Shown here one piece after another: positions 40,649-62,353 of a DNA stretch of 64,000 nucleotides. The notes beneath the pieces were generated by a model. It was not told where the DNA came from, ran no database searches, and worked only from the letters and a program-made list of their open reading frames with translations. The position numbers and the translations under genes were made by a program. The stretch lies in the NCBI GenBank assembly GCA_902571865.1, contig CACGDO010000005.1, forward strand, positions 1,486-65,485, in the 5' to 3' direction. The stretch comes from an uncultured Alphaproteobacteria bacterium. GTDB taxonomy: Bacteria > Pseudomonadota > Alphaproteobacteria > HIMB59 > GCA-002718135. Each line of letters begins with the position of its first letter. The first letter of the stretch is position 1.

Positions 40649-41539
40649 ATGAAAATTGGTATTGATGTAGGTGGTACCAAAACTGAGGGTATTCTTTTAG
40701 ATCCAAATGGAATTGAAATAGATAGAAAAAGAATTAATACTGAAAAAAGTTATGATGGAACAATTAAGGGAATACTGTCCATTATAAAACATTTTGAAGA
40801 TAAACACGGCAAAGCAGAAACTGTTGGTATGGGAATGCCAGGAGCCATATCAAATGATACAGCTTTAATTAAAAATGCCAATTCTATATGGTTAAACGGC
40901 AAACCTTTTAAGCAAGATTTAGATAAAATTCTAAATAGAAATGTGAATTTGGAAAATGATGCTAATTGTTTTACTCTTTCTGAAGCAGTAGATGGAGCTG
41001 GTAAAGGGTTTGAAGTTGTTTTCGGTGTTATTATAGGAACTGGTGTAGGCGGTGGTATCAGTATCAATCAAAAAGTTATAAGAGGTCGTAATAGCATAAG
41101 TGGAGAATGGGGACATATAGTTTTGCCTAGCAGAACAGAAGATGAAAAAAAATATGTTAAAAAATGTTATTGTGGAAAAGATGGGTGCTTAGAAACCTAT
41201 ATATCTGGACCAGGGTTTTCATCTGTTTATAATTTACGTTTCAATAAAAATTATAATTCACATCAAATATTAGATGGTTATAATAATAAAGAAAAAGATA
41301 GTATCTTTGCACTAAATCAATATGTCGATCATTTAGCAAGAGGATTGTCTTTAGTTTGTAATATTCTTGATCCAGATGTGATAGTTTTGGGTGGAGGTAT
41401 GTCAAACATCGATTTTATTTATGAAAATATAAATGATGCTCTAAAAAAATATGTTTTTACAGATACGCTTCACACAAAAGTTGTAAAAAATATTCATGGT
41501 GATTCAAGTGGCGTAAGAGGAGCTGCTTGGCTTTCTTAA
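40649..41539 (+). CDS. ROK-family sugar kinase (fructokinase Mak-like)
   Basis: GIDVGGTK, ENDANCF, GTGVGGG, GEWGH, CYCGKDGCLE zinc motif. Confidence 0.9.
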   Translation: MKIGIDVGGTKTEGILLDPNGIEIDRKRINTEKSYDGTIKGILSIIKHFEDKHGKAETVGMGMPGAISNDTALIKNANSIWLNGKPFKQDLDKILNRNVNLENDANCFTLSEAVDGAGKGFEVVFGVIIGTGVGGGISINQKVIRGRNSISGEWGHIVLPSRTEDEKKYVKKCYCGKDGCLETYISGPGFSSVYNLRFNKNYNSHQILDGYNNKEKDSIFALNQYVDHLARGLSLVCNILDPDVIVLGGGMSNIDFIYENINDALKKYVFTDTLHTKVVKNIHGDSSGVRGAAWLS

Positions 41540-42987
41540 ATACCACCCATTGAAATATATTTTATAGTTAAATAGTCATCAAGGCCATAACGAGAACCTT
41601 CTCTTCCCATTCCTGATTCTTTTACACCTCCAAAAGGCACTTCTGCAATTGTTGGTAGTCCATTATTGATAGATACAATCCCATATTCAAGTGCTTCAGC
41701 TACTCTCCAAATTCTTCCTATGTCTCTTGAATAGAAATATGAAGCTAATCCATATGGTGTATCATTAGCCATTTTAATCACCTCATCATCACTAGAAAAT
41801 TTATAAAGAGGTGCAACAGGTCCAAATGTTTCTTCAAAAGTTATTTTTGCCTTTGTAGATACATTTGAGAGAACAGTTGGTTGATAGAAATTACCACCAA
41901 GCGAATGCACATCTCCACCAATTGCTATTTTAGCTCCGGTATTTACTGCATCTTGAACATGATCAATTACTTTTTCTAAAGAGGATTGATCAATTAAAGG
42001 ACCAGATACAATTCCATCTTCAAGTCCATTACCCACTGTTATTTTACTGACTTCATTTGTAAATTTTTCTAGGAATTCATCATAAATATTTTCATGGACA
42101 AAAATTCTATTTGAACAAATACATGTTTGACCACTATTTCTAAATTTACTTTGAAGTGCGCCTGCAACAGCTTCATCCATATCTGCATCATCGAAAACAA
42201 TAAAGGGTGCATGACCACCAAGTTCCATAGAAACTTTTTTTACTGTTGAGGCACTTTGCTCTAAAAGTATTTTTCCAACCTCCGTAGATCCTGTAAAAGA
42301 AATTTTTCTTACAATTGGGTTACTTGTTAGCTCTTTACCAATCTCACTTGCCGATCCAGTGATTACATTAAATACACCATCTGGAAAACCAGCTTCTTTA
42401 GCAAGCACTGCTACAGCTAGTGCTGAATAGGGTGTTTGGCTTGCTGGTTTAACAACAGTAGTACAACCAACAGCTAGAGCGGCTGCACATTTTCTTGTGA
42501 TCATTGAATTTGGAAAATTCCATGGAGTTATTGCTCCCACAACACCAACAGGTTGTTTAATTATTACAATTCTTTTTCCAGGTCTTGGATCAGGAACTAT
42601 ATCACCATACACTCTTTTTGCTTCTTCAGCATAGAACTCAATGTAAGAAGCACCCATTAGTATTTCACCCTTTGCTTCAGCTAGAGGTTTACCTTGCTCA
42701 ATAGTCATTATTTTAGCTAAATCATCTGCATTTTCTGTAATTAACTCACCCCATTTTTTAAGAATAACTGATCTTTCTTTCGCAGTAGTTTCTTTCCAGG
42801 TTTGGAAAGCAGTATTGGCATCATCTACAGCTTTTTTAGTTTCTGAAATTGAGCATTTTGGGACGTTGCCAATAATTTCAAGAGAGGCTGGATTATTTAC
42901 CTCAAGAGTTTCACCTGAAGAACTGTTAACCCATTCCCCATTTATAAAACATTTTTGTTTAAAGAGTGATTTGTTATTTAATTCCAT
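41536..42987 (-). CDS. gabD: NAD(P)-dependent succinate-semialdehyde dehydrogenase family (GabD/Ssd-like)
   Basis: ITPWNFP, FTGSTEVGK, ELGG, GQTCIC, EETFGP, PFGGVKESGMGREG. Confidence 0.85.
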   Translation of the reverse strand: MELNNKSLFKQKCFINGEWVNSSSGETLEVNNPASLEIIGNVPKCSISETKKAVDDANTAFQTWKETTAKERSVILKKWGELITENADDLAKIMTIEQGKPLAEAKGEILMGASYIEFYAEEAKRVYGDIVPDPRPGKRIVIIKQPVGVVGAITPWNFPNSMITRKCAAALAVGCTTVVKPASQTPYSALAVAVLAKEAGFPDGVFNVITGSASEIGKELTSNPIVRKISFTGSTEVGKILLEQSASTVKKVSMELGGHAPFIVFDDADMDEAVAGALQSKFRNSGQTCICSNRIFVHENIYDEFLEKFTNEVSKITVGNGLEDGIVSGPLIDQSSLEKVIDHVQDAVNTGAKIAIGGDVHSLGGNFYQPTVLSNVSTKAKITFEETFGPVAPLYKFSSDDEVIKMANDTPYGLASYFYSRDIGRIWRVAEALEYGIVSINNGLPTIAEVPFGGVKESGMGREGSRYGLDDYLTIKYISMGGI

Positions 42988-43030: not shown

Positions 43031-44134
43031 ATGACAATAGTTAATTCTTGGAATGAATGGGATCCATTAAGACATGTTATAGTTGGAGCAGTTGAAAATG
43101 CCAACATACCTCCAATGGAACCGGCGCTTGAACCAAAAATAAGTAAAGATAGTGGTATGGCAGGATCTCACGGACCACGTTCACAGGAGTCAATTGATAA
43201 AGCAAATATACAATTAGAAAACTTTGTTAAAATATTAAATTCCCTAAATATAAAAGTTGATAGACCAACACCTATTGACTTTTCTCAGATTATCAAGACA
43301 CCCGATTGGTCTAATGATGGTATGTTTGGTTGTATGCCTCCAAGAGATGTTATTCTTACTGTAGGAAATGAAATGCTAGAGGCGCCAATGTCTTACAGAT
43401 GTAGATGGTTTGAGTACCTTGCTTATAGGCCACTACTTGAAAAATATTATTCAGAAGATAAAAATATGAGATGGGAGTCGGCACCTAAACCAAGATTAAC
43501 AAATCAATCTTATAAGTCTAATTATCTTCCTAAAGGTATAACGGAAGAAGAACGATATAAAAAAATCGAAAATAGAGACATGATATTGACTGAAAAAGAA
43601 CCACTTTTTGATGCAGCAGAAATTTTACGTTTTGGAAAAGATCTTTTTTATCATAACAATTTTACATCAAATTTAAGTGGTTTAGATTGGTTAAGAAGGC
43701 ATTATCCAAATCATCGTGTTCATCAAATTAATTTACCAGGTGATTTAATTCCAACTCACATTGATGCATGTTTTACTCCCATTAAACCAGGAGTTATAAT
43801 TATTAATCCGAATAGAAAAATATCATCAGAGCAAAGAAAAATTTTTGATGATAATAAATGGGAAATTCATGAAGCAGCACCTTCTATTCATAATAGTCCA
43901 CCACCTATGTGTTATTCATCAATCTGGTTGTCAATGAATGTTTTGATAATTGATCCTAAAACTATATGTGTCGAAGCAACAGAAGAAAAAATGATTAAAC
44001 AAATGGAAAGTTTTGGATTGGATGTTATTCCTGTTCCTTTTAGAGACGTTTATGCATTTGGGGGTAGTCTACATTGTGCCACAACTGATGTTCATAGAGA
44101 GGGTGAGTGTGAGGATTATTTTCCAAGTCAATAA
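43031..44134 (+). CDS. Amidinotransferase (pentein superfamily, AGAT/StrB1/SxtG-like)
   Basis: VNSWNEWDPL, PRD, FDAA (catalytic Asp), HID (His), GGSLHCAT (Cys nucleophile). Confidence 0.92.
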   Translation: MTIVNSWNEWDPLRHVIVGAVENANIPPMEPALEPKISKDSGMAGSHGPRSQESIDKANIQLENFVKILNSLNIKVDRPTPIDFSQIIKTPDWSNDGMFGCMPPRDVILTVGNEMLEAPMSYRCRWFEYLAYRPLLEKYYSEDKNMRWESAPKPRLTNQSYKSNYLPKGITEEERYKKIENRDMILTEKEPLFDAAEILRFGKDLFYHNNFTSNLSGLDWLRRHYPNHRVHQINLPGDLIPTHIDACFTPIKPGVIIINPNRKISSEQRKIFDDNKWEIHEAAPSIHNSPPPMCYSSIWLSMNVLIIDPKTICVEATEEKMIKQMESFGLDVIPVPFRDVYAFGGSLHCATTDVHREGECEDYFPSQ

Positions 44135-44889
44135 TGAATAGTTTTAATCAAAATAATTTTAAAGCCAATTTAAATGACACAAACTTTTCTAGAATTGGTA
44201 TAATTACACTATCAACGGATTTTACCATAGAGCAGGATTTTAGAAAAATTTGCCATAATTTACCAGTTGATCTATTTTTTAATAGGATACCTTTTTTAAA
44301 TCCTCTAACTCATGAAAATTATATGAGAATGGCTGATCATCTTACAGAAACAACAAACCAAATACTACCCAATGAAAAAATACAAGTTGTAGCGTATGGA
44401 TGTACTTCGGGTACTATTGAAATTGGTGAAAAAAGAATAAGATCTGAAATTTTCAAGGCTAAACCTGATGCTTTAATTACTACACCTATTACAGCAGCTG
44501 TCAAAGCACTTAAATTGTTAAACCATAAAAAAATTGCTGTCCTTACTCCTTATCCAAAAGATGTTAATGTTAAAGTTTACAAATATTTAATTGAAAGTGG
44601 ATTTGAAATTAAATCATTTAGTTCATTTAATTTAAATTATGATTCGGAAATTGCCAAAGTTACTCATGATAGTTTAATGCGAACAATTTCTTCAATTAAT
44701 TTAATAGATGTTGATAGTATTTTTGTATCTTGTACTGCATTAAAAGTAATTGATATTATCGAAACATTAGAGTCAAAATTAAGCACAGATATCATTTCAA
44801 GTAATCAAGCTATTATTTGGGATTCATTAAGATTATCTAATATTAATCAAAAAATTGATGGTTTTGGTAACCTATTTAAATTACATTAA
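44134..44889 (+). CDS. eutA: EutA-like Asp/Glu racemase-maleate isomerase family protein
   Basis: RIGIITLSTD, paired catalytic cysteines YGCTSG and VSCTAL, SSNQA; precedes eutB/eutC-like genes. Confidence 0.72.
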   Translation: MNSFNQNNFKANLNDTNFSRIGIITLSTDFTIEQDFRKICHNLPVDLFFNRIPFLNPLTHENYMRMADHLTETTNQILPNEKIQVVAYGCTSGTIEIGEKRIRSEIFKAKPDALITTPITAAVKALKLLNHKKIAVLTPYPKDVNVKVYKYLIESGFEIKSFSSFNLNYDSEIAKVTHDSLMRTISSINLIDVDSIFVSCTALKVIDIIETLESKLSTDIISSNQAIIWDSLRLSNINQKIDGFGNLFKLH

Positions 44890-44901
44890 ATAGGGTTTAA
44901 A

Positions 44902-45864
44902 TTGATTACACTTCAACAAATACAAGATGCACATAAGAAAATTTTACCTTATGTTAATTATACACCATTAATTAATTCTAATTTCTTATCAAAAAATACT
45001 ACAGTAAAACTAAAGTTAGAAAATTTTCAAATCACTGGTTCATTTAAGTTAAGAGGCGCTGTTAATAAACTTCTTTCTTTAAGTGAAGATGACAAAAACA
45101 AAGGAGTCATTGCAGTTTCTACAGGGAATCACGGCAAAGGCGTTGCTTATGCTTCAAAAGTATTGGGCATTCAATCAACAATATATATGTCTTCAATGGT
45201 TCCAGAATATAGAAAAGAGGCTATTCAAAAATTAGGGGCTAAAGTAGAAATTATTGGAAAGAATAGTGATGAAGCTGATTTGTATGCTAAACAAATTGCG
45301 AAAGAAAAAAATATCCCACTAATTCATCCTTTTGATGATGAAGATATTATAATAGGGCAAGGTACAGTTGGACTTGAAATGCTTACTGAATTTCCCGAAG
45401 TTGATACAGTAATTATACCAACATCTGGTGGCGGTCTTATATCTGGAATTGCTCAGGCTATTAAACTTCAAAAACCTAACACAAAAATTATTGCCGTATC
45501 TATGGAAAGAGGCCCCTCAATGTATGAAAGTCTAAAAGAAGGTAAGCCTGTTGATGTAGAGGAAACTGAAACTTTAGCTGATTGTTTAGGGGGTAGTATT
45601 GGTTTAGATAATAAATTTACATTTAATATTGTACAAAAATACGTTGATGACTTTGTTTTAGTAAGTGAAGAAAAAATAGCTGAGGGAATTAGAATAAACT
45701 TTTTAGAACATAAAATTGTATCTGAAGGTGCTGCAGCAACAAGTGTTATGGTTGTTAAAGAAAAATTAACATCGCACTTAGGAAAAAATATAATTTGTTT
45801 AATTTGTGGTGGAAATATTGACTCGGAACTATTTAATAAAGTTTTAAGCCATGCTCATCCTTAA
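44902..45864 (+). CDS. eutB: EutB-like PLP-dependent dehydratase (Ser/Thr dehydratase family)
   Basis: TTG start; TGSFKLRGA, STGNHG, GGGL, and the EutB-type LGGSIGLDN segment. Confidence 0.8.
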   Translation: MITLQQIQDAHKKILPYVNYTPLINSNFLSKNTTVKLKLENFQITGSFKLRGAVNKLLSLSEDDKNKGVIAVSTGNHGKGVAYASKVLGIQSTIYMSSMVPEYRKEAIQKLGAKVEIIGKNSDEADLYAKQIAKEKNIPLIHPFDDEDIIIGQGTVGLEMLTEFPEVDTVIIPTSGGGLISGIAQAIKLQKPNTKIIAVSMERGPSMYESLKEGKPVDVEETETLADCLGGSIGLDNKFTFNIVQKYVDDFVLVSEEKIAEGIRINFLEHKIVSEGAAATSVMVVKEKLTSHLGKNIICLICGGNIDSELFNKVLSHAHP

Positions 45865-46825
45865 TAAAAATGATATTATTCAACATGTAAATTTGAATAA
45901 AAATCTCATACCAATAATAGAGGAGGCTTTCATAAGTTTATCAAAGGGATTGGTAATGATGCCACCTATAATGAGAATTGATATTGAAAAATATCATGGT
46001 GAATCAGATGTTAAAGCTGCATACATTGAGGGTTTTGACAGTTTTGCAATAAAAATCGCTTCAGGTTTTTTTGATAATCCAAAACTTGGTTTGCCATCTA
46101 GTAATGGACTGATGGTTTTATTAGATTCAAAGACTGGAGTTGTAAAATCTGTTTTATTGGATGAAGGTTATCTTACAGATACTAGAACAGCTATAGCAGG
46201 AGCAATAGCTACAAAATATTTATCAAATCAAAATGCTAATTCTGTTGGTATTATCGGAGCTGGAATTCAAGCCAAATTACAACTTCAAGCAATAATGTTA
46301 GTTAGAAAAATAAAAAAAATAACAGTCTGGACAAGAGATGAGACAAAAGCAAACCAATTTATCGAAGGTTTTAAAGATTTAGATTTAGATTTGCATGTAG
46401 CTTCTTCTTGCAAGGAGTTGGCAAGCTTATCAGAAATAATCGTTACAACAACTCCTAGTAAAAAACCGCTTTTGCAATTTGATTGGATAATTAAAGGAAC
46501 TCACATAACAGCAATGGGATCAGATGCAGAACAAAAAAACGAATTAGATCCTCAGTTGTTAAAACATTGCGATCAATATGTACCTGACAATCAATTACAA
46601 ACAAGTGTTTTGGGTGAATTACATCATGCTTTAAAACAAAATATAATTTCTTCTAAAGAAAAATTTAATGAACTTGGCGATATTATTAACGATCCAAGCT
46701 TAGGAAGAAAAAATAAAGAAGATATAACAATATGTGATTTGACAGGAACTGGCGTACAAGATACTGCAATAGCAAGATTTGCTTATAATCTTTGTAAAAC
46801 AAATAATTTAGGCATCAATATTTAA
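45851..46825 (+). CDS. eutC: EutC-like ornithine cyclodeaminase/mu-crystallin family protein
   Basis: MPPIMRIDI..GESDVKAAY, GFFDNPKLGLPS.NG, GYLTDTRTA, DLTGTGVQD. Confidence 0.82.
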   Translation: MLILNKNDIIQHVNLNKNLIPIIEEAFISLSKGLVMMPPIMRIDIEKYHGESDVKAAYIEGFDSFAIKIASGFFDNPKLGLPSSNGLMVLLDSKTGVVKSVLLDEGYLTDTRTAIAGAIATKYLSNQNANSVGIIGAGIQAKLQLQAIMLVRKIKKITVWTRDETKANQFIEGFKDLDLDLHVASSCKELASLSEIIVTTTPSKKPLLQFDWIIKGTHITAMGSDAEQKNELDPQLLKHCDQYVPDNQLQTSVLGELHHALKQNIISSKEKFNELGDIINDPSLGRKNKEDITICDLTGTGVQDTAIARFAYNLCKTNNLGINI

Positions 46826-46828
46826 TTT

Positions 46829-48271
46829 ATGAGTCAAGCAATAATAAAAAAAACGTCTGATTACTTCAAATCAAAAGGAGTTGTCTTGCCAAGTATTAGT
46901 GAACTTCAAGACCCTCAAATTATTAATGATGATATTAAAAATTCTCTAAAAAAAATAAATAATAATGATATCAATCCTCTTAACCTCTTTAGAGTTCATT
47001 GGTTTAATAAAAGAGATCAATCAGGTTTTGGAAATGAGCCTGAATATATTGTGCTTCCAACAGAATTTACAGGTGTTAAGGCAAAGATAATTGTAAATAT
47101 GGGACGATATTTTCCCTTAATAACAGCTCATAAAGTTTTGGCAGCTTATGGTTGTTTGCTTCCAAGAATATTGAATGGTACTTTTGATTATGAAAAACAT
47201 AAAGCAGTTTGGCCTTCAACAGGAAATTATTGCCGGGGTGGAGTAGCAATATCTCGGATAATGGGTCTTAATAGTATTGCAATACTTCCTGAAGGAATGA
47301 GTAATGAGAGATTTGAATGGTTGAATAATTGGGTTGAAGATAAAAAAAATATCATAAAGACAAAAGGCACAGAAAGTAATGTTAAAGAAATTTACGATGC
47401 TTGTAATGAATTAAAAAAAGATAATCAAAATGATATCATAAATCAATTTGATGAGTATTATAACTATGGCATTCATCGTTCCGTAACCGGTCCATCTTTT
47501 GAAAAATCATTTCTTAAAGTTAAAGGTAACAGTAATTTAACTCCTAGGTTTTACGTAAGTGCTTCAGGATCAAGTGGTACTCTAGCAGCAGGAGATTATC
47601 TTAAAGATAAATTACAGACGAAGATTGCAGTTGTTGAAGCTTTGGAGTGCCCAACTTTGCTTCATGGCGGTTATGGTGAACATAATATACAAGGAATTGG
47701 TGACAAACATGTTCCCCTTATTCATAATGTAATGAATACAGATTTTGTCGTAGATGTCACTGATCAAGCTACCAATAATCTAAATATGATTTTTAATACT
47801 GAAATAGGAAAAAAGTTTTTAATTGAGAAAAAAAATTTTGAGCCTGATTTTGTTTCACGACTTCCTGAATTTGGCTTTTCAGCAATAGCAAATATATTGG
47901 CATCAATAAAACTAGCTAAATATATGGATTTAAATAGTGATGACGCAATTATAACGGTCGCTACAGATGGTGCAGATTTATACATGTCAGAATTAAATAA
48001 GACCATTGCTGATTTTAAAAATAATTATGATGAAATAGTTTGTGCTGAACTATTTGGAAAACACCTATCAGGAATATCTACTGATAATATGCTAGAACTT
48101 TCTTACCTGGACAAGAAAAGAATATTTAATTTAGGTTACTTTACTTGGGTAGAGCAACAAGGTGTAAGTCTTGAAGAATTTGAAAAAAGAAAAGATCAAA
48201 AATTTTGGAATTCACATTATGAATATATGCTTTCTCTAGACAATAAGATTAAAGAATTTAATAATATGTAG
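46829..48271 (+). CDS. Fold-type II PLP-dependent enzyme of unknown specificity (480 aa)
   Basis: AHKV (PLP Lys), WPSTGNY, SGSSGTL phosphate loop, HNIQGIG cysteine-synthase-like motif. Confidence 0.75.
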   Translation: MSQAIIKKTSDYFKSKGVVLPSISELQDPQIINDDIKNSLKKINNNDINPLNLFRVHWFNKRDQSGFGNEPEYIVLPTEFTGVKAKIIVNMGRYFPLITAHKVLAAYGCLLPRILNGTFDYEKHKAVWPSTGNYCRGGVAISRIMGLNSIAILPEGMSNERFEWLNNWVEDKKNIIKTKGTESNVKEIYDACNELKKDNQNDIINQFDEYYNYGIHRSVTGPSFEKSFLKVKGNSNLTPRFYVSASGSSGTLAAGDYLKDKLQTKIAVVEALECPTLLHGGYGEHNIQGIGDKHVPLIHNVMNTDFVVDVTDQATNNLNMIFNTEIGKKFLIEKKNFEPDFVSRLPEFGFSAIANILASIKLAKYMDLNSDDAIITVATDGADLYMSELNKTIADFKNNYDEIVCAELFGKHLSGISTDNMLELSYLDKKRIFNLGYFTWVEQQGVSLEEFEKRKDQKFWNSHYEYMLSLDNKIKEFNNM

Positions 48272-48274
48272 GTT

Positions 48275-49429
48275 ATGAAAACTCAGTCATTACATAACCA
48301 ATTAGTAGAATGGCGTCATGATCTTCATATGCACCCACAATTAAGTTTTGAAGAAGAGTATGCTGCAGCAAAAGTATCAACACTTCTAAAAGAATTTGGA
48401 ATAGAAGTTCATTCTGGTATTGCCAGAACTGGAGTAGTTGGAATTTTAAAAAAAGGAAATAGTTCAAATTCAATAGGTATAAGAGCTGACATGGATGCTC
48501 TTCCTATACATGAAACTAATAAGTTTAGTTATAAGTCCAAGTTTGATAACAGAATGCATGCATGTGGACATGATGGTCACACAACAATGTTATTAGGTGC
48601 AGCAAAATATTTATCAGAAAAAGGTAACTTTAACGGTACGGTATATTTTATTTTTCAACCTGATGAAGAGAATACATTTGGTGCAAGAACAATGATAGAT
48701 GAAGGATTGTTTGATAAATTTAACATTGATGAAGTTTACGCTATGCACAATATTCCTAACATGGAAATTGGAACATTTGGTACAAGAAATGGAGCTATTA
48801 CAGCCAGTGAAAATTTATTTGAAATTGAAATAAAAACTAAAGGTGGGCACGCTGCATTACCTCATATGGGGGTAGATGCAATAACTGTTGGTTCTCAAAT
48901 AGCTGTAGCACTTCAATCGATAGTGTCTAGGAAATTAAATCCAGCAGACAATGGTATAGTGTCTATTACTGAATTTATAACCGATGGTAAAAAAAATGTT
49001 CTGCCAGGTATGGTAAAAATGACTGGTGACGCGAGAGCTTTATCAAAAGAAACAAATGAAAAAATTGCTTCAAAAATGTTACAAATTGTCGAAGGGATTT
49101 GCAATGCACATGGTGTTAATGGTAGTGTTAAATATGAAACAGCCTGTCCTGTAACTTTTAATTCAAAAAATCAAACTGAGTCTGCAACAAAAGCTGCAGT
49201 TTCTTTACTTGGTAATGATAAATGTAATGGTAATATAGAACCTCGTTTATTCTCAGAAGATTTTTCTGTTATGGCAAATGAAAAACCTGGCTGCTTTGTT
49301 TTAATGGGTAACGGAACATCAGAGCAGCATTCCAGACCTTTACATGCTGATAATTATGATTTTAATGACGAATTATTAGTCATAGGTTCTTCATATTGGA
49401 CTGAATTGGTAGAACAACAATTAAAATAA
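48275..49429 (+). CDS. M20D-family amidohydrolase (hippurate hydrolase-like)
   Basis: IRADMDALP, MHACGHDGH, FQPDEE, GGHAA.PH, SEDF, LH. Confidence 0.9.
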   Translation: MKTQSLHNQLVEWRHDLHMHPQLSFEEEYAAAKVSTLLKEFGIEVHSGIARTGVVGILKKGNSSNSIGIRADMDALPIHETNKFSYKSKFDNRMHACGHDGHTTMLLGAAKYLSEKGNFNGTVYFIFQPDEENTFGARTMIDEGLFDKFNIDEVYAMHNIPNMEIGTFGTRNGAITASENLFEIEIKTKGGHAALPHMGVDAITVGSQIAVALQSIVSRKLNPADNGIVSITEFITDGKKNVLPGMVKMTGDARALSKETNEKIASKMLQIVEGICNAHGVNGSVKYETACPVTFNSKNQTESATKAAVSLLGNDKCNGNIEPRLFSEDFSVMANEKPGCFVLMGNGTSEQHSRPLHADNYDFNDELLVIGSSYWTELVEQQLK

Positions 49430-50587
49430 ATGTTTTCTGAAAACTTAAATAAACTAAAGAAAAAAATGTCTGAGAACAATATTGATCTCTCAATTATAAC
49501 TGATGATGACTCGATATATTATTTCACAGGATACCATGACTTCCTTCATATGGATTTTTATCGACCAACATTATTAGTTGTTTCAAATGATCATAAAACT
49601 TATTTAATTACACCTCTTCTTGATGTTTTATTAGTACCAGAATCTTGTCCTGTAGATATGGTTGAAACATGGAATGATGGTATTGGAAATGAATGGAGAG
49701 AATTATTACCTCAAATCATCAATCAGCATAAAAATATTTTTATTGAAAAATTTAAAATTAACCCAATGGTTAAGAGTTATTTAGACGAATTACTTAAAGA
49801 CCATCCTGGGGATTTAACCAAATTAATAGATAATATAAGAATGATTAAATCTAATCATGAATTGAATATAGCTCGTCATGCCGGCGAAGTTGGTATGGCT
49901 ATGATGGAGGCAGCAAAAAAAACAATTGGCCATAATGTTCCTGAGTATGAGGTTGCACTTGCACAATCACAAGCTGGAACAAGAAAAGCTGCAGATCTTT
50001 TAAAAGAATTTTATCCTGATAATATCAATATGTCTCCAAATATTCACTTTTTACCTGTTATGACATCGGGTCATGATTTACCTAAAACTCACCATCGTGC
50101 TTCAACCAAAATTATAAAAAAAGGTGATCCAGTATTCGTATGTTATTGTGGTTCTACAAATTTCCATAGGTTTAAATTAGGTTTTGACAGAATATTTTGG
50201 GTAGAAGAAATTCAATCCGATGAACAAATAAAAGCTTTTGAGACTGCAGTTAAATCTCAAAAAGCTGCTCTTGAAATTCTTGGCCCTGGAGTAACAGCTG
50301 AAGAAGTTCATGCTGCTTATGCAGATACTATACAGTCTGAGGGATACCCTTATCCTACATTTCGATGTGGAAGAGGTACAGGCTTTAGCTTTTTAGAGGA
50401 ACCACAATTAGTAGTTGGTAATAAAACAGTACTGGAGCCTGGAATGGTATTTGCCGTTGATGGCGGGGCAAGTGCAAATAATTTTAGATCACAAGTTGGT
50501 GATAGTTTTATTATAACAGAAGAAGGATACGAACAAATAACACATCATTCTAAAAATATTGATGATCTAATAATTCCACATGGATGA
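49430..50587 (+). CDS. M24 pita-bread-fold hydrolase, metal-independent (creatinase/ectoine-hydrolase-like)
   Basis: Creatinase-type N-domain (YFTGY), R.IKS..E linker, C-domain lacking the usual D/D/H/E/E metal ligands. Confidence 0.75.
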   Translation: MFSENLNKLKKKMSENNIDLSIITDDDSIYYFTGYHDFLHMDFYRPTLLVVSNDHKTYLITPLLDVLLVPESCPVDMVETWNDGIGNEWRELLPQIINQHKNIFIEKFKINPMVKSYLDELLKDHPGDLTKLIDNIRMIKSNHELNIARHAGEVGMAMMEAAKKTIGHNVPEYEVALAQSQAGTRKAADLLKEFYPDNINMSPNIHFLPVMTSGHDLPKTHHRASTKIIKKGDPVFVCYCGSTNFHRFKLGFDRIFWVEEIQSDEQIKAFETAVKSQKAALEILGPGVTAEEVHAAYADTIQSEGYPYPTFRCGRGTGFSFLEEPQLVVGNKTVLEPGMVFAVDGGASANNFRSQVGDSFIITEEGYEQITHHSKNIDDLIIPHG

Positions 50588-51605
50588 AATCACAGTATTT
50601 AACACACATTGCTGTGGTGAAATTGGGGATGTTGTAACTGGAATTAAAGGCTTGAATTTTAAATCACCTGAAGAAGCTTCTAAAAAACTTTTTTTAGATA
50701 AAAAATGGAGAAATTTTTTTCTAAATGAACCTCGAGGAGGGGTCTTTAAACATTGTAATATTATTTTAGAACCTTCAAATAAAAATGCAGATGCTGGATT
50801 TGTAATTATGGAACCAGAAGATAATCCTCCAATGAGTGGGTCAAATGCAATTTGTGTAACGACAGTCTTATTAGAAAAAAATATTGTTCAAATGAAATAT
50901 CCTAAAACCATGCTTACACTTGAAGCTCCAGGTGGTTTAATAAAAGTTGTTGCTGATTGTGAAAATAAGAAAGTTAAAAGTGTCACTTTAACTAATCTTG
51001 CCTGCTTTGCAGATAAAATAGATGTAGATTTAAAGACTAAAAATTATGGTACAATTAAAGTAAGTACTGCTTTTGGAGGTGACAGTTTTTTAATTTGTAA
51101 TGCTAGTGATTTTAATCTTAAAATTGAACCAAAGAATGCAAATAAATTTGTAAATGTTGCAAAAGAATTATTAAAAGAAGCAAACGCATCTATAGGATTT
51201 GAGCATCCTACTATTAATGGATTAGACTATCTTTCCTTTTGCCAATTTATTGAACCCTTAAAAAAAAATAATCAATCATTACTTACAGGATTAAATACAG
51301 TTGTTATACGACCTGGGAAACTTGATCGTTCACCTTGCGGCACAGGCACTTCAGCAAGATTAGCAGTAATGAAAGAAAAAAATGAAATACAAATAAATGA
51401 AGAATTTATATCAAAGTCTATTATAGGATCTTCATTTAACGCAAGTATTGAAAAGGAAATTAAAATTAATAACAAAAATTGTATTATTCCAAAAATAACA
51501 GGTAGTGCATTTATTACTGGAAAACAAAGTTTATATATCGATAAGGATGATCCTTTTCCAGAAGGTTATAGATTAAATGACACATGGCCAGATTCATTAA
51601 GTTAA
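50580..51605 (+). CDS. Proline racemase superfamily enzyme (Ser/Cys active-site pair)
   Basis: EPRGG, PMSGSNAIC, DRSPCGTGTSA, ITGSA. Confidence 0.88.
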   Translation: MDEITVFNTHCCGEIGDVVTGIKGLNFKSPEEASKKLFLDKKWRNFFLNEPRGGVFKHCNIILEPSNKNADAGFVIMEPEDNPPMSGSNAICVTTVLLEKNIVQMKYPKTMLTLEAPGGLIKVVADCENKKVKSVTLTNLACFADKIDVDLKTKNYGTIKVSTAFGGDSFLICNASDFNLKIEPKNANKFVNVAKELLKEANASIGFEHPTINGLDYLSFCQFIEPLKKNNQSLLTGLNTVVIRPGKLDRSPCGTGTSARLAVMKEKNEIQINEEFISKSIIGSSFNASIEKEIKINNKNCIIPKITGSAFITGKQSLYIDKDDPFPEGYRLNDTWPDSLS

Positions 51606-51681: not shown

Positions 51682-52947
51682 ATGACAAAATTTAATGCCT
51701 GGAATGTAATTAAAAACGGTTTAAATGGTCAGTCTTATTGGACTAGACAATGGCGTGATCCAGAACCAAAAAGTAGTTATGACGTTGTAATAATTGGGGG
51801 AGGTTTGCACGGTCTTGCCACAGCATATTATTTAGCAAAGAATCATAATATAAAAAATGTAGCTGTCTTAGAAAAAGGCTGGATTGGTGGAGGAAACGCT
51901 GGACGTAATACCACTATTGTAAGATCAAATTATATGATGCCAGGCAACCACGAATTTTATGAACATTCTTTAAAGTTATGGGAAAATTTAAGTCACGAAT
52001 TAAATTATAATGTAATGTTTAGCCAACGAGCTCATGTCTCGTTATTTCATAGCCCTGGTGCTAAAGATTCAGTTTCACGGATTTATAATATTATGCGACT
52101 CCACGGAACTGATGCAGAACTTTGGGATTTAAAAACTTTAAAGAAAAAAATTCCGCATTTAAATTATCATAATTCTAGATTTCCAATACTTGGAGCTGCA
52201 GTTCAAAAAAGAGCAGGCAATGCAAGACACGATGCAGTTGCATGGGGTTATGCAAGGGCTGCAGATACATTAGGTGTAGACATTTTGCAAAATTGTGAAG
52301 TTACAGGTTTTACAAGAAAGAATGGAAATATTGAAAGTATTCAAACTTCAAGAGGAATTATAAAAGGAAAGAAAATAGGATTTGCTGTTGCAGGTAATAC
52401 TTCAGTATTATGGCAAATGGCAGAATTAGGCAACCTGCCAATTGAGTCTCATAAACTACAAGCATTTGTATCTGAGGCTGTTAAGCCACTCCTAGATCAG
52501 GTTGTTGTTTACGGTGTAGGTGGTGCACATTTCTATATATCGCAGTCAGACAAAGGAAGTATGGTGTTTGGTGGTGATCTTGACTGGTATAAATCATATG
52601 CTCAAAGAGGAAATCTTCCTATGGTTCAAGATGTTGCTGAAGCGGCCATGGCAATATTTCCTTCACTTGGGAGAATAAGATTACTTCGTCATTGGGCAGG
52701 TGTTATGGACATGACAATGGACGGATCATTTTTTATTTGTAAAACACCGATATCTAATCTCTATTTAAATGCTGGTTGGAACTATGGGGGTTTTAAAGCA
52801 AGTCCAGCATCAGGTTGGTATTTTGCCGACTTAATTGCAAATGAAAGCCCGCATAACTACGTGCAAAATCATAATTTAGAAAGATTTGAAAAAGGTATCA
52901 ATATAGATGAACGTGGTGCAGGACCTGATCCGAAATTGCACGGTTAA
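51682..52947 (+). CDS. soxB: Heterotetrameric sarcosine oxidase family beta subunit
   Basis: GGGLHG, GRNTTIVRSNY, ARHDAVAW, GWNYGGFKA. Confidence 0.9.
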   Translation: MTKFNAWNVIKNGLNGQSYWTRQWRDPEPKSSYDVVIIGGGLHGLATAYYLAKNHNIKNVAVLEKGWIGGGNAGRNTTIVRSNYMMPGNHEFYEHSLKLWENLSHELNYNVMFSQRAHVSLFHSPGAKDSVSRIYNIMRLHGTDAELWDLKTLKKKIPHLNYHNSRFPILGAAVQKRAGNARHDAVAWGYARAADTLGVDILQNCEVTGFTRKNGNIESIQTSRGIIKGKKIGFAVAGNTSVLWQMAELGNLPIESHKLQAFVSEAVKPLLDQVVVYGVGGAHFYISQSDKGSMVFGGDLDWYKSYAQRGNLPMVQDVAEAAMAIFPSLGRIRLLRHWAGVMDMTMDGSFFICKTPISNLYLNAGWNYGGFKASPASGWYFADLIANESPHNYVQNHNLERFEKGINIDERGAGPDPKLHG

Positions 52948-53232
52948 ATGATTAGAATTAATTGTCCTTATTGTGGTGAAAGAGATCATAGTGAATTTAG
53001 TTATGGAGGAGATGCAACAATCAATTATCCTTCGTTAGATGCATCAGAGAAAGAATGGACTGAAGCTATATTTTTCAGAAAAAATATAAAAGGTTTTCAA
53101 TTTGAAACATGGCATCATTCTAATGGATGTAGAATGTGGTTGGTAGTTGAACGTTCTACTGTCACTCATGAAATAAAAAGTGTCAAACCATCCCATCCGG
53201 ATTTACAGAAGATTGTAGAAAATAATAAATGA
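52948..53232 (+). CDS. soxD: Sarcosine oxidase family delta subunit
   Basis: CPYCG.R...EF.YGG, WHHSNGC zinc ligands. Confidence 0.92.
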   Translation: MIRINCPYCGERDHSEFSYGGDATINYPSLDASEKEWTEAIFFRKNIKGFQFETWHHSNGCRMWLVVERSTVTHEIKSVKPSHPDLQKIVENNK

Positions 53233-56186
53233 AGACAAGAAGAATAGATAACTATGGAAAAATTAATAGAGATAAAATTTTATCCTTTAGGTGGGATAAA
53301 AAAAATTACAAAGGTTTTGAAGGAGATACTCTAGCATCAGCATTACTTGCAAATAATATTGGTATAGTTGGTAGAAGTTTTAAATATCATAGACCAAGGG
53401 GAATATTTTCTAGTGGAGTCGAGGAGTCCGGTGCTTTAGTTACTATTGGTTCAAAAGATAGAAGAGATCCAAATGTAAGAGCAACAACGCAAGAATTATA
53501 TAATGGTTTGGAAGCAAGTGGTCAAAATGCATTTCCAAATGTAAATTTTGATCTAGCTGGAATAAATAATTACTTAGGTAGGTTTTTTGCAGCTGGTTTT
53601 TATTATAAAACTTTTATGGGAATACCTCCACTTGAATGGGGTAAAGGAACAGCCATATGGATGTTTTTTGAAAAGTTTATTAGAAAAGCTGCGGGAATGG
53701 GAAGTGCTTCTGGGTTACCTGATCCAGATACTTATGAGCATGCTCATGATTTTTGTGATTTAATTGTTGTAGGATCAGGACCTGCTGGTGTTGCAGCTGC
53801 AATAGAGGCAGCAGAAAAAAAATTAGATGTTATTTTAGTTGAGCAAGATAGTCTTATTGGAGGAAATCAACTTGCAGAAAATGATTTTGATAACTCACAA
53901 ATTAAAAATCAACTTGAAAATCTAGGCATAAAAATAATGACTAGAACTACTGCATTCGGATTATATGATAATTGTGTTGTTGGTTTATTAGAGAGAGTAA
54001 CAGACCATATATCAGCATCAAATGTAAACATTCCACGCCAAAGATTTTGGACCATTAGAGCAAAGCATATAATTGTTGGTGCTGGAGCAATTGAAAGACA
54101 CATTGCATTTAATAATAATGATATTCCTGGTGTAATGACCGTAAATGCATCAAAGCATTATTTGAATAGATATGGTGTACTCACCGGAAAAAGAATTGTG
54201 ATAGCTACAAATAATGATTCTGTTTATGAAACAGCACATCAATTATCAGAAGCTGGGGCCAATGTAACTGTTCTTGATTCACGAACTAATTTTGAAATTG
54301 AGACAAATAAAAGTTTTGAAATAAGAAAAGGGTATGTACCTTATAATATTAATGGTTCAAAAAAAATTAATAGTTTAGATATATCAAAAAGTGTAACTAT
54401 TAATAAATCTGAAACTATAAATTGTGATCAGGTTCTATTATCAGGTGGCTGGTCACCTGCTGTACATTTGTTATCTCACAGAGGCGTAAAGCCTAAATGG
54501 GATTATAACAATGCTTGTTTTTTACCAAGTGACACAAAAGAAAATATTACAATGGTAGGTTCTTCTAGAGGTTTATGGAATAAAAATGATTGTATTGCTT
54601 CTGGGATAGCAGGAACTACTGATGCGTTGAACCGTTTAGGTATTTCTAAAACAAATTATTTTTTCCCAAAACCTGGTGGATGGAAAAATCCCATACAACC
54701 ACTTTATGAAGTAAAATATAAAAAATCTAGATCAAAAAGTTTTGTAGATTATCAACATGATGTAACAACAGATGACGTAAGACTCGCACATCGTGAAGGT
54801 TTCATTTCGGTAGAGCATCTTAAAAGATACACAACTTTAGGTATGGCAAACGATCAAGGAAAAATGGGAAATATCATTGGATTGTCTTTAATGGCAGAAC
54901 TTTTAAATAAAGAAATTTCAGAAGTTGGAACTACTGTTTTTAGACCTCCTTATACTCCTGTATCTATAGGTGCCTTAAGCGGAAGAAATGTTGGAAAACA
55001 TTTTAGGCCGTTAAGAGTAACGCCAATGCATCAATGGAATATTGATCATGGTGCAAAAATGATTGAAGTTGGATTGTATCAAAGACCTTGGTATTATCCC
55101 AAAGAAAATGAAACTTTAAGTGACTCTTATATAAGAGAAGCATCAACAGTAAGAAAAACAGTTGGAATTTGTGATGTAACATCATTAGGCAAAATAGCTA
55201 TTCAAGGACCAGACTCTACCGAATTTTTAAATAGAATTTATTCGAATGGTTTTTCAAAACTACAAGTTGGAAAAGCTAGATACGGTATCATGTTACGTGA
55301 TGACGGTATTGTAATGGATGATGGCACATCTTGGAGATTAGCAGAAAATGAATATTTTATGACGACGTCTACAGGTGAAGCTGCAAAAGTGATGTCATGG
55401 TTAGAAGAATTACTTCAAACTAGATGGACAGATCTTAATGTTAATGTGACTAGTGTTTCTGAACAATGGGCAGGCGTATCAATTGCAGGACCTAAATCTA
55501 GAGAAGTTCTCAATAATTGTGTCGATGATTCTTTGGTTATAACTAATAATAACTTACCTTTTATGGGTGTTACTTCAACATTTCTTAAAGGTAATATTCC
55601 TTGTAGGATTGCAAGAATTAGTTTTTCCGGCGAATTAGCTTTTGAAGTTTATGTCAAATCAGATTTTGCCAATACAATGATGGACTTACTTTGGGAAAAT
55701 GCAAAAAAATATGATGGATGTTTATATGGATTAGAAGCTTTAGGTGCGCTTAGAGTTGAAAAAGGTCATGTAACAGCTGCTGAGCTTGATGGGAGGGTAA
55801 CAATTGATGATGCAGGTTTAAGCAAAATGGCATCTACAAAAAAATCATATATTGGAAGCGCAATGAGAAAACGAGGAGTTTTAAAAAATAATGATCGTGA
55901 AATTCTAGTAGGCTTCTTTCCTACAAATCTAAAAGAAACTTTTAATGCTGGAACTATTGTGTGTGAAAAAAATAATATTAAAGGACAGGGTATCGGAAGA
56001 ATCACCTCAGTCACTTATTCTCCAGAACTTGGACATTGGATTGGAATAGGTTTTGTAAAAGGTGGTTTAGATAAATGGAAAGATACCACTTTAGTAGGCG
56101 CAGACCCTGTAAGAAATAAACAAATGAATTTAAAAGTTGTTTCACCACATATGATTGATCCTAAAGGAGAACGAATGTATGCATAG
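53229..56186 (+). CDS. soxA: Sarcosine oxidase family alpha subunit (NAD-binding plus GcvT-like folate domain)
   Basis: GDTLASAL, FKYHRPRG, GSGPAG, KRYTTLGMA.DQGK, RISFSGELAFE. Confidence 0.92.
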   Translation: MKTRRIDNYGKINRDKILSFRWDKKNYKGFEGDTLASALLANNIGIVGRSFKYHRPRGIFSSGVEESGALVTIGSKDRRDPNVRATTQELYNGLEASGQNAFPNVNFDLAGINNYLGRFFAAGFYYKTFMGIPPLEWGKGTAIWMFFEKFIRKAAGMGSASGLPDPDTYEHAHDFCDLIVVGSGPAGVAAAIEAAEKKLDVILVEQDSLIGGNQLAENDFDNSQIKNQLENLGIKIMTRTTAFGLYDNCVVGLLERVTDHISASNVNIPRQRFWTIRAKHIIVGAGAIERHIAFNNNDIPGVMTVNASKHYLNRYGVLTGKRIVIATNNDSVYETAHQLSEAGANVTVLDSRTNFEIETNKSFEIRKGYVPYNINGSKKINSLDISKSVTINKSETINCDQVLLSGGWSPAVHLLSHRGVKPKWDYNNACFLPSDTKENITMVGSSRGLWNKNDCIASGIAGTTDALNRLGISKTNYFFPKPGGWKNPIQPLYEVKYKKSRSKSFVDYQHDVTTDDVRLAHREGFISVEHLKRYTTLGMANDQGKMGNIIGLSLMAELLNKEISEVGTTVFRPPYTPVSIGALSGRNVGKHFRPLRVTPMHQWNIDHGAKMIEVGLYQRPWYYPKENETLSDSYIREASTVRKTVGICDVTSLGKIAIQGPDSTEFLNRIYSNGFSKLQVGKARYGIMLRDDGIVMDDGTSWRLAENEYFMTTSTGEAAKVMSWLEELLQTRWTDLNVNVTSVSEQWAGVSIAGPKSREVLNNCVDDSLVITNNNLPFMGVTSTFLKGNIPCRIARISFSGELAFEVYVKSDFANTMMDLLWENAKKYDGCLYGLEALGALRVEKGHVTAAELDGRVTIDDAGLSKMASTKKSYIGSAMRKRGVLKNNDREILVGFFPTNLKETFNAGTIVCEKNNIKGQGIGRITSVTYSPELGHWIGIGFVKGGLDKWKDTTLVGADPVRNKQMNLKVVSPHMIDPKGERMYA

Positions 56187-56742
56187 ACATTCTGCACTAG
56201 AAACAATTTATAAGGTTGGAAAATATTCATCAAGCGAGAAACAATCTCTAACATTTAAAGAATTAAAAAGTTTAGAAATTTTGCAAATTGCTTGTTGGCC
56301 TGACAAAATTGATGAAATGAATAATTTAATATCAAAAGAACTAAAAATTAAAAATATTCCTAGTTTTAATAAAGGGATAATTTTTGAAAATAAATCATTA
56401 TGGAGAATGGAACCTTTGAAATGGTGGCTATTTAATAAAGAAATTGAAATAAGTGAGCAAATCGCAACAATTTTAGACATGTCTCATGCTTTTACAGGTA
56501 TTGAAATTACAGGAGATAATTCATCATTATTTTTAAATAGACATCTTCCAATTGATTTAAGAGCTAGGAATTTTCCAGATCTATCTTCTGCTAGCACAGC
56601 TATTCATCATGTCAGTGTTAAGCTATTTAAAATAACTTCCAATAACTACTGTCTATATATACCAAGAGGTTTTGCTTTATCAATTTGGGAGATCCTTCTT
56701 GAAACAGCGGATCAGTTTGGATACGAAGTATTAGAGAGATAG
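56179..56742 (+). CDS. soxG: Sarcosine oxidase family gamma subunit
   Basis: Position after soxA with 8-nt overlap; DMSHA...I.ITG, PIDL, RGFA..IW..L. Confidence 0.8.
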   Translation: MHRHSALETIYKVGKYSSSEKQSLTFKELKSLEILQIACWPDKIDEMNNLISKELKIKNIPSFNKGIIFENKSLWRMEPLKWWLFNKEIEISEQIATILDMSHAFTGIEITGDNSSLFLNRHLPIDLRARNFPDLSSASTAIHHVSVKLFKITSNNYCLYIPRGFALSIWEILLETADQFGYEVLER

Positions 56743-56816
56743 ATAAGTTATCTTGGGGTAACGGAAACTGGTTATAAACTAATTACTAATGTATTTAGCA
56801 ATTTGCATATAGTAAA

Positions 56817-57497
56817 TTAATCATTTGCATCACCACCTCCAGCACCTTTGGCTCTAGATTCCTCTGACTCAGGTACAAAAGTTCTAAAAGCTATCTTAGA
56901 TATTTGATCCCAAGATTTTTTATCAGGATTTATGCCTTCAGATAGCAAATTATTTATATTTGATGATGGAATATTAATATCTAACTTTTGTTCATTTAAA
57001 ATATTTTTTGTAAGTAAAAGATCAAAATTTCTTTGATAATTTGTAGAGATAATATCTCTATTAATACTAATATTTTTATTTGTTATTTGTGCATTAACTT
57101 TTTGATCTAACAAAAACTGTGAATTGATATTTTTTTTTGCATACTTATAAAGCAAAGGTATTAGGAATATGGGATCATTGCAATTTTTTATAGTTAATAT
57201 TAAATTTTCTTTTTTATCTACTTTTGATATCAAATAATCAATTAATCCTGGCCCTATCATCAAAAAAGATTTATTTTTACAATCAAACTCATCATTTATA
57301 TTTGATGGATCTATGCTAGCATTAAAAGTGTTATCTAATTCTTTAATTTTTAATGTTAATAATTTGATTCCATCTAAACCAAGTATTTCAAGCCAAGTTG
57401 TAATAAATGCAGCGTCTTCATCTGATCCATATGTGAACCCTAATCCTGAAAAAGCTCGCTGTGAATTAGTGTAGACTTCATAATAAGAGTAACTCAC
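56817..57497 (-). CDS. DUF3726-like protein of unknown function (probable GTG start 57497; track start 57533)
   Basis: N-terminal S..EV....QRAF.GLG..YG..EDAA....WL...GLDG pattern; C-terminal SEESRAKGAG. Confidence 0.55.
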   Translation of the reverse strand: MSYSYYEVYTNSQRAFSGLGFTYGSDEDAAFITTWLEILGLDGIKLLTLKIKELDNTFNASIDPSNINDEFDCKNKSFLMIGPGLIDYLISKVDKKENLILTIKNCNDPIFLIPLLYKYAKKNINSQFLLDQKVNAQITNKNISINRDIISTNYQRNFDLLLTKNILNEQKLDINIPSSNINNLLSEGINPDKKSWDQISKIAFRTFVPESEESRAKGAGGGDAND

Positions 57498-57502
57498 AGA
57501 TA

Positions 57503-59167: not shown

Positions 59168-59221
59168 TTATTAAATATCTGTAGTTAATTTTGGTTTTTT
59201 CATTAATAGAAGTATTAATCT

Positions 59222-61068: not shown

Positions 61069-61133
61069 TTTTTAAATTAACTTTTGACTATTTGTTTTCA
61101 TGCAGTTATTCAAGCTTCATTACAAAATATATT

Positions 61134-62222: not shown

Positions 62223-62353
62223 ATCTATTTTTTTATCGGTATTTGGCCAAAATTTTTTATTTTTACCTCTTTTTTTTCATTTAATGACATGTTATTAAAC
62301 CACCATTACGGACATAATCTTAAGATTAATTAATAAAAAATAGGAGGATATAT

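Follow-up and report, generated by a model that had tools for sequence, protein, structure and literature searches.

The closest described counterparts of the genes analysed here are the ectoine and hydroxyectoine catabolic clusters eutABCDE-ssd-atf and doeABCD, which combine a ring-opening hydrolase, a deacylase and dehydroxylation, and which in Alphaproteobacteria carry eutA, eutB and eutC in this order next to a succinate-semialdehyde dehydrogenase (SSADH)-type enzyme. Variants with an M20-family amidohydrolase where EutE is missing are represented by DoeA2/DoeB2 (NF038259, NF038260) and by Bacillaceae clusters that combine eutD-eutC-atf with abgB and lack eutE (PMC13188858). We analysed a 64,000-nt stretch of contig CACGDO010000005.1 (hereafter the window; 31% G+C) from an uncultured alphaproteobacterium with a genome of 1.63 Mb (92% complete), which contains an eight-gene operon with EutA-, EutB- and EutC-like genes in canonical order. 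This operon shares the adjacent SSADH-type dehydrogenase and the pathway logic with the canonical ectoine clusters, and relatives have in addition a DoeA-like eutD, a few of them also ehuABCD. It differs in the apparent deletion of eutD, in the absence of an AstE-type eutE from the lineage, of a clustered aminotransferase and of EnuR and AsnC regulators, in its additional genes for an arginine:glycine amidinotransferase (AGAT)-type protein, a 480-aa pyridoxal phosphate (PLP) enzyme, an M20 amidohydrolase, a second M24 subfamily and a proline-racemase-family enzyme, and in its head-to-tail arrangement with soxBDAG.

On balance, the locus is probably a variant, modular island for ectoine/hydroxyectoine-type catabolism in a streamlined marine alphaproteobacterium of the SAR11 type, from a subclade that deleted eutD; an M24-M20-EutA module would serve as a second hydrolytic entry. 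Within this reading, EutD and the Ehu importer would be flexible feeder cassettes and the M20 enzyme would stand in for EutE. Surface-ocean bacterioplankton is dominated by SAR11-type cells. Ectoine is a major phytoplankton exometabolite and ranks among the principal nitrogen-rich compounds that marine phytoplankton releases (PMC13012070). Our literature search found no paper on this cluster or on ectoine catabolic genes in this lineage.

Gene content and ectoine-type features of the operon

The operon consists of eight co-directional plus-strand open reading frames (ORFs; 43031-51605), which overlap or are separated by at most 13 nt; the AGAT stop codon overlaps the eutA start, and the racemase-family start overlaps the M24 stop. 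An SSADH-type aldehyde dehydrogenase gene diverges upstream, and soxBDAG begins 77 nt downstream, followed by homA and homB on the minus strand and by homC. Families were assigned in the window from profile scores relative to curated cut-offs and from the margin over the next-best family:

41536-42987, minus strand: SSADH/GabD-type aldehyde dehydrogenase (Pfam Aldedh 577 bits; TIGR01780 SSADH 727 bits, cut-off 646)
43031-44134, plus strand: AGAT-type amidinotransferase, first gene of the operon (263 bits against human 1jdw, full length)
44134-44889, plus strand: EutA-like protein of the Asp/Glu racemase/maleate isomerase superfamily (TIGR02990 212 bits, cut-off 318, next family 84)
44902-45864, plus strand: EutB-like PLP-dependent beta-hydroxy-amino-acid dehydratase (NF005680 379 bits, cut-off 413, next family 322)
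45851-46825, plus strand: EutC-like NAD(P)H imine reductase or cyclodeaminase of the ornithine cyclodeaminase (OCD)/mu-crystallin type (PRK08291 "cyclodeaminase" 453 bits, above the cut-off of 408; TIGR02992 409 bits, cut-off 472; next family 308)
46829-48271, plus strand: 480-aa fold-type-II PLP enzyme with a core like that of CysK and cystathionine beta-synthase (CBS) (Protein Data Bank (PDB) matches, AlphaFold, Foldseek)
48275-49429, plus strand: M20 N-acyl-L-amino-acid amidohydrolase (TIGR01891 319.5 bits, above the cut-off of 153.75)
49430-50587, plus strand: M24 "pita-bread" hydrolase of the creatinase/EutD style lacking the metal site (Creatinase_N and Peptidase_M24 domains)
50580-51605, plus strand: proline-racemase-superfamily enzyme with a Ser/Cys pair (Pfam Pro_racemase 329 bits)
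51682-56742, plus strand: soxBDAG-type heterotetrameric N-methyl-amino-acid oxidase/dehydrogenase (SoxB TIGR01373 606 bits, cut-off 529)
56753-56820, plus strand: 3'-end relic of eutD/doeA between the soxG stop and the homA stop (ungapped alignment to eutD of the relative G022)

The order of the operon genes is constant across the genus at 55-99% amino-acid identity, and the eight-gene arrangement is therefore not due to chance. The PLP-enzyme gene had no match in 24 genomes of the sister family (same order), and searches for the AGAT, EutA-like and M24 genes were blank in the two sister-family genomes within the class samples. An earlier note, made from the window sequence, had described EutA/B/C-like genes in canonical order followed by a fold-II PLP enzyme, an M20 protein and an M24 protein devoid of the EutD motif; ORFs and family matches agree with all six genes, to which the AGAT, racemase-family, aldehyde dehydrogenase and soxBDAG genes, missed in that description, have to be added.

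The Eut families are the best matches of EutA, EutB and EutC alike, with margins of 57-128 bits over the next family. The best PDB matches of the EutA-like protein are maleate isomerases, and two catalytic-type Cys residues are present (YGCTSG, VSCTAL); the EutB-like protein carries the PLP-lysine motif GSFKLRG and the EutC-like protein the Rossmann motif GAGIQA. The cluster offers a setting for assaying the putative roles of EutA, EutB and EutC. A pairing of the 480-aa PLP enzyme with EutC as in SbnA/SbnB was considered and not adopted; EutC reaches only 105 bits on the SbnB family (cut-off 327).

A complete ehuABCD set, with all four subunits above equivalog cut-offs, lies between eutC and the PLP gene in G011, G475, G481, L159, L160 and L176 (G labels denote genomes and L labels loci, some of which belong to the same genome, L162 being a contig of G004, for example). 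It is accompanied by a bisC/TorA-family molybdopterin S/N-oxide reductase gene, together forming a 5.4-kb insertion (L035:4421-9828 in G011; also in L159, L160 and L176). With ehuABCD inside the cluster and a true eutD at its end in relatives (see below), we consider the cluster to be ectoine-related.

Deletion of eutD and maintenance of the operon

A search of the genome with the eutD model TIGR02993 yielded a best match of 49 bits (cut-off 613). In 24 of 60 genomes of the genus, a true eutD/doeA of 391 aa follows directly after soxG in the same direction. We collected 80 loci of relatives with the M24 profile, 53 of which were informative for the eutD site: 27 contain an intact 391-aa eutD, and 25 have instead a spacer of 74-81 nt of the type found in the window. 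In relatives, the eutD product reaches 462-477 bits with TIGR02993 and 364 bits in comparison with the crystallised DoeA of H. elongata, and it contains the motif LTGYDGWSFYV.

An ungapped alignment pairs the relic in the window with the final 67 nt of eutD from G022 (47 of 67 positions identical); its score is 27, compared with a maximum of 21 among 500 shuffles. In frame, 12 of the 20 codons of the relic agree with the EutD C-terminus. Spacers of this type are common to 25 species-level genomes, which keep the operon at 92-100% identity. As the spacer is a 3' remnant of eutD that is common to 25 related loci, the alignments indicate that eutD was deleted once, in the ancestor of the subclade containing this genome. 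The absence of eutD, for which the earlier note had proposed non-orthologous replacement or a shifted substrate, thus goes back to a deletion that left a 67-nt relic and not to an ancestral non-orthologous design.

In a comparison of 56817-59167 with loci L111-L182, the homA gene of the window is about 97% identical to homA of eutD-containing loci and only about 87% identical to homA of the other eutD-less loci with the relic spacer. Since it is closer to loci that have eutD than to its fellow eutD-less loci, this suggests a recombination breakpoint beside the deletion scar.

All eight operon ORFs are full length in the window. For every cluster gene, the ratio of nonsynonymous to synonymous substitution rates (dN/dS), compared between two genomes without eutD, is 0.04-0.14, which reflects purifying selection. 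Four studies with seawater RNA libraries provide contigs that cover the operon and span the eutB/eutC, PLP/M20, M20/M24, M24/racemase and racemase/soxB junctions; these data, in which DNA carry-over is possible, were used for presence and junction bridging only, and their depth ranks no genes. Because eutD is gone and the other genes are nevertheless intact and constrained, the sequences indicate that the operon has a function independent of EutD. The natural polymorphism in the presence of eutD among near-identical genomes represents a ready-made experiment on the remaining genes.

Candidate enzymes, proposed route and alternatives

The eutE model TIGR02994 had zero matches in the genome, and no eutE above the cut-off was found in four eutD-containing relatives or in G447, a 1.3-Mb alphaproteobacterium of another family. 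The window contains neither an AstE-family deacetylase nor a class-III aminotransferase, as the earlier note had observed; five class-III-like matches are located on other contigs of the genome. A search for ectC gave no match here, yet control genomes were equally silent. In eutD-containing strains, the M20 enzyme is the sole in-operon deacylase candidate for the EutD product, and it is likely to be an N-acetyl-diaminobutyrate deacetylase given that eutE is absent from the eutD-containing relatives tested as well. The role as deacylase proposed in the earlier note is thus plausible for an enzyme of the N-acyl type in a lineage devoid of eutE, and the cluster offers a candidate non-AstE deacetylase. 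Like DoeA2/DoeB2 and the Bacillaceae abgB clusters, the locus has an M20 amidohydrolase where EutE is missing; unlike them, its M20 (315 bits on DoeB2, as high as on other members of its subfamily, but below the cut-off of 550) and M24 proteins (54 bits on DoeA2, cut-off 575) do not belong to these families. A hydantoinase-style route was not adopted; the M20 enzyme is of the N-acyl and not of the carbamoylase type.

The M24 protein scores 57.5 bits on the EutD model TIGR02993 and has the N-terminus FTGYHDFLHMDF in place of LTGYDGWSFY. At the five metal-ligand positions of the Pyrococcus furiosus prolidase it contains C, G, R, D and D, where EutD has E, A/P, Y, M/I and E, and both keep the catalytic His221. 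As the ligands are replaced in each and the catalytic His is kept, both are predicted to be metal-free pita-bread hydrolases, of different subfamilies. The M24 protein shares with creatinase and ectoine hydrolase the Creatinase_N and pita-bread domains, the loss of the dinuclear metal ligands and the retained His, and differs from them in its low scores (62 bits against Pseudomonas putida creatinase, 39 bits against DoeA) and in its own pocket residues. We regard it as a candidate amidine or amidino hydrolase, for which the function as an alternative ring opener put forward in the earlier note is plausible. It is not a simple replacement of EutD, however, because both genes coexist in relatives, the proteins are only about 22-25% identical and all five compared pocket positions differ. 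Conversion of creatine via sarcosine to glycine by M24 and Sox was considered in view of the 62-bit creatinase score, and opine catabolism was considered as well; neither was adopted, as discriminating evidence is lacking.

M24 homologues with 56-59% identity occur in Alpha- and Gammaproteobacteria, often next to M20 and EutA-like genes. Outside the lineage, homologues with 50-59% identity adjoin M20 and/or EutA-like genes in G156, G318, L183, L185, L187, L188 and L190, with an M20 homologue directly beside M24 in G156, G318, L185, L187 and L190. In G156 the M20-M24-EutA module is headed by an SSADH-like aldehyde dehydrogenase gene, and in G169 a distance of about 3 kb separates the M24 homologue from an ehu-eutB-eutC cluster, in which additional M24 paralogues are found. 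The M24-M20-EutA module itself is real and is conserved in several proteobacterial lineages, and the earlier assignment of M24 as a ring opener finds a counterpart in its joint occurrence with M20 and EutA.

The variant ectoine-type locus of G169 (L106:1169-13248) comprises ehuD, ehuA, eutB (above the cut-off), eutC, a CN-hydrolase gene and three M24 paralogues, and also holds a gene for a PLP enzyme resembling diaminopropionate ammonia-lyase.

The 480-aa PLP enzyme of the window matches cysteine synthases in the PDB at no more than 50 bits over residues 82-389. Its AlphaFold model (predicted local distance difference test score 95) has N- and C-terminal helical extensions around a CysK/CBS-like core, and Foldseek ranks CysK, beta-cyanoalanine synthase, CBS and SbnA, all of them beta-replacement enzymes, as the best matches; the fold search thus returned only the CysK/CBS/SbnA class and no specific function. 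About 291 cluster representatives match the enzyme at E<=1e-30, and homologues with 50-55% identity in nine other alphaproteobacterial genomes have no conserved neighbours. ESM Atlas provided family-level names only for this enzyme and M24. The interpretation as a diaminobutyrate-deaminating lyase, which the earlier note had advanced for a diamino acid, is unsupported by this fold and by homologues that stand alone. Apparent frameshifts occur in the PLP gene at L142:7399-8839 (single-cell genome) and in eutA at L152:3472-4222 (metagenome-assembled genome) and reflect either sequencing error or real decay.

In the AGAT-type protein, D170, D254, H303, D305, R322, S354/355 and C407 of 1jdw are conserved, including the Cys-His-Asp triad and the arginine-binding Asp170, Asp305, Arg322 and Ser355 of the family, and the flap residues N300 and M302 are replaced by Ile and Thr. 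Homologues with 57-63% identity in other Alphaproteobacteria are not located beside eut genes, and their neighbourhoods in six genomes show no conserved genes except M24 paralogues (G447, G195), one copy lying by a transposase gene. In two relatives (G004, i.e. L162, and L173), two M24 paralogues replace AGAT, EutA and the aldehyde dehydrogenase at the operon head; those of G004 (L030:12536-14868) score 131 and 188 bits on the EutD model. The aldehyde dehydrogenase is conserved beside AGAT in relatives and is by position the counterpart of Ssd/DoeC, which converts aspartate semialdehyde to aspartate.

The racemase-family protein scores 417 bits on NF047722 (t3HypD; cut-off 550) and 314-352 bits against 4k8l, 1tm0 and 4k7g, and its closest PDB entries are 3-hydroxyproline dehydratases (4k7g). 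Its catalytic pair is Ser/Cys (PPMSGSN, DRSPCGTG) genus-wide and Ser/Thr in 4k7g, 4k8l and 1tm0. The gene is cleanly missing from four eutD-containing loci. Several relatives have an Ldh_2-family gene between the racemase-family gene and soxB (L033:14109-19280 in G020, L034, L032:5191-6192), and some of them also have an OpuA-type ABC importer there, whose double permease is a fusion of 662 aa. The Ldh_2 family includes pyrroline-2-carboxylate reductases. With OCD- or Ldh_2-family reductase genes nearby, the locus resembles systems of trans-3-hydroxy-L-proline dehydratase (4k7g family) and pyrroline-2-carboxylate reductase, from which it differs in the Ser/Cys pair and in missing the NF047722 cut-off. 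By gene distribution, the AGAT, PLP enzyme and racemase-family genes are separable add-on modules.

For eutD-containing relatives, the favoured ectoine-type reading predicts the following route, in which the enzyme roles are deduced from family membership and gene context. EutD would open ectoine or hydroxyectoine to N-alpha-acetyl-(hydroxy)diaminobutyrate, from which the M20 enzyme of the operon would strip the acetyl group in place of an AstE-type EutE. For removal of the beta-hydroxyl, EutA would catalyse an epimerisation, EutB a PLP-dependent dehydration and EutC an NAD(P)H-dependent imine reduction, and an unlinked class-III aminotransferase would yield aspartate semialdehyde, which the divergently encoded aldehyde dehydrogenase would convert to aspartate. 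In eutD-less cells, the input would most likely be provided by the metal-free M24 paralogue, which would open ectoine, hydroxyectoine or a closely related cyclic amidine or amidino compound, and the AGAT, PLP and racemase-family enzymes would act as add-ons for neighbouring nitrogen-rich substrates or side steps. A far-reaching extension, which we regard as tentative and rather doubtful, is that the M24-M20-EutA-like module together with the aldehyde dehydrogenase constitutes an undescribed EutD- and EutE-independent route for opening and deacylating ectoine, hydroxyectoine or a related cyclic-amidine osmolyte that feeds eutD-less SAR11-type cells. Within this extension, the Ser/Cys racemase-family enzyme may act directly on the ring, for instance as a dehydratase of 5-hydroxyectoine, which resembles 3-hydroxyproline in being a cyclic beta-hydroxy imino acid.

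Several observations weigh against an ectoine-type island. Within the cluster, no gene accounts for the step from diaminobutyrate to the semialdehyde, the model leaves three of the eight operon genes, those for AGAT, the PLP enzyme and the racemase-family protein, without a role, and the scores of EutA, EutB and the TIGR model of EutC are below the curated cut-offs. The genome contains no Ehu binding protein (best ehuB match 42 bits, cut-off 191; Ueh and Tea were not searched), and no GntR/MocR (EnuR) or AsnC protein was found nearby in a Pfam scan of ORFs of at least 100 aa (35581-63999, plus soxD). To these are added the low identity of M24 to EutD and its different pocket, and the neighbours of the M24-M20-EutA module outside the lineage, which are EamA transporters and CoA-type enzymes with no ectoine genes; on the basis of these neighbours the substrate of the module may be no ectoine. 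As the main alternative, it is possible, without being probable, that the core operon targets guanidino or cyclic imino acids such as hydroxyarginine/hydroxyornithine, 3-hydroxyproline or guanidinoacetate/creatine-type substrates and that the eut-like names mislead. In such a scheme, AGAT would strip amidino groups and the creatinase-like M24 would hydrolyse the amidino product, EutB and EutC would turn a beta-hydroxy amino acid via a cyclic imine into proline, the racemase-family enzyme would feed the same imine pool, and eutD and ehuABCD would be independent flexible cassettes that landed in an osmolyte island. The scheme fits the retention of every arginine-binding and catalytic residue in AGAT, the position of the AGAT homologue of G447 between two M24 paralogues, a GntG-like aldolase and an EamA transporter, and an M24 paralogue of G195 that lies beside an agmatinase-family gene about 6 kb from AGAT, as well as the proximity of the racemase-family protein to 3-hydroxyproline dehydratases, its Ldh_2-family neighbour in many relatives, the persistence of the operon after the loss of eutD and the outgroup contexts of the M24 module. 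Against it, the importer and the hydrolase specific to ectoine are inserted in, or directly adjoin, precisely this operon, and they do so in several independent arrangements. Furthermore, the Eut families are the best matches of EutB and EutC, the M20 enzyme is of the N-acyl-amino-acid rather than the carbamoylase/ureohydrolase type, and the AGAT and racemase-family genes can each be missing from some relatives in which the remaining genes are present.

A strictly linear conversion of ectoine to aspartate, in which M24 would replace EutD, M20 would replace EutE and the PLP enzyme would deaminate diaminobutyrate in lieu of the aminotransferase, appears improbable. It agrees with the absence of eutD, eutE and a clustered aminotransferase, the metal-free M24 and the N-acyl-type M20, but eutD evidently disappeared through a deletion and occurs together with M24 in relatives, the similarity of the PLP enzyme is to beta-replacement enzymes while diaminobutyrate carries its leaving group on the gamma carbon, homologues of the PLP enzyme in other genomes occur singly, and the AGAT, racemase-family and aldehyde dehydrogenase genes are ignored. 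That the operon is a functionless remnant decaying after the loss of eutD is very hard to sustain, as the deletion relic and the missing Ehu transporter (the only one searched) are set against eight full-length ORFs, the low dN/dS values, 25 genomes with a highly conserved operon and the RNA-library contigs.

Genes downstream of the operon

The soxBDAG genes encode the four subunits B, D, A and G of a heterotetramer with a folate domain; the SoxD family and the SoxA domains GCV_T and SO_alpha_A3 are present. They are followed by homA (DUF3726), homB (554 aa, no Pfam match) and homC (M19 peptidase) at 56817-60208, which match the homarine operon. The homarine pathway encoded by homABC yields N-methylglutamate, which requires an N-methylglutamate dehydrogenase-type enzyme (PMC13236597). 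As homABC adjoin soxBDAG and their product needs such an enzyme, soxBDAG may encode an N-methylglutamate dehydrogenase of the homarine pathway rather than a sarcosine oxidase. The locus resembles the homABCD system (PMC13236597) in having homA, homB and homC immediately downstream and a soxBDAG-type complex adjacent; the homarine system is, however, a separate pathway, which bears on the ownership of soxBDAG and not on the eut-like genes.

Beyond homC, the window encodes a PotA-like ATPase with a TOBE domain and an SBP_bac_8 binding protein (61092-63457), and relatives have in addition two permeases, a DAO-family oxidase and a second aldehyde dehydrogenase (possibly homD). In G447, a DoeA-like eutD (474 bits) and an EutA-like gene adjoin a Pot-type ABC importer (L091:6141-10418), the ATPase of which is 67% identical to that of the window (61092-62222).

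Upstream, the stretch 10020-35595 contains two ORFs of about 1400 aa and, behind them, about 30 short co-directional ORFs, a layout that resembles rpoBC and ribosomal-protein operons.

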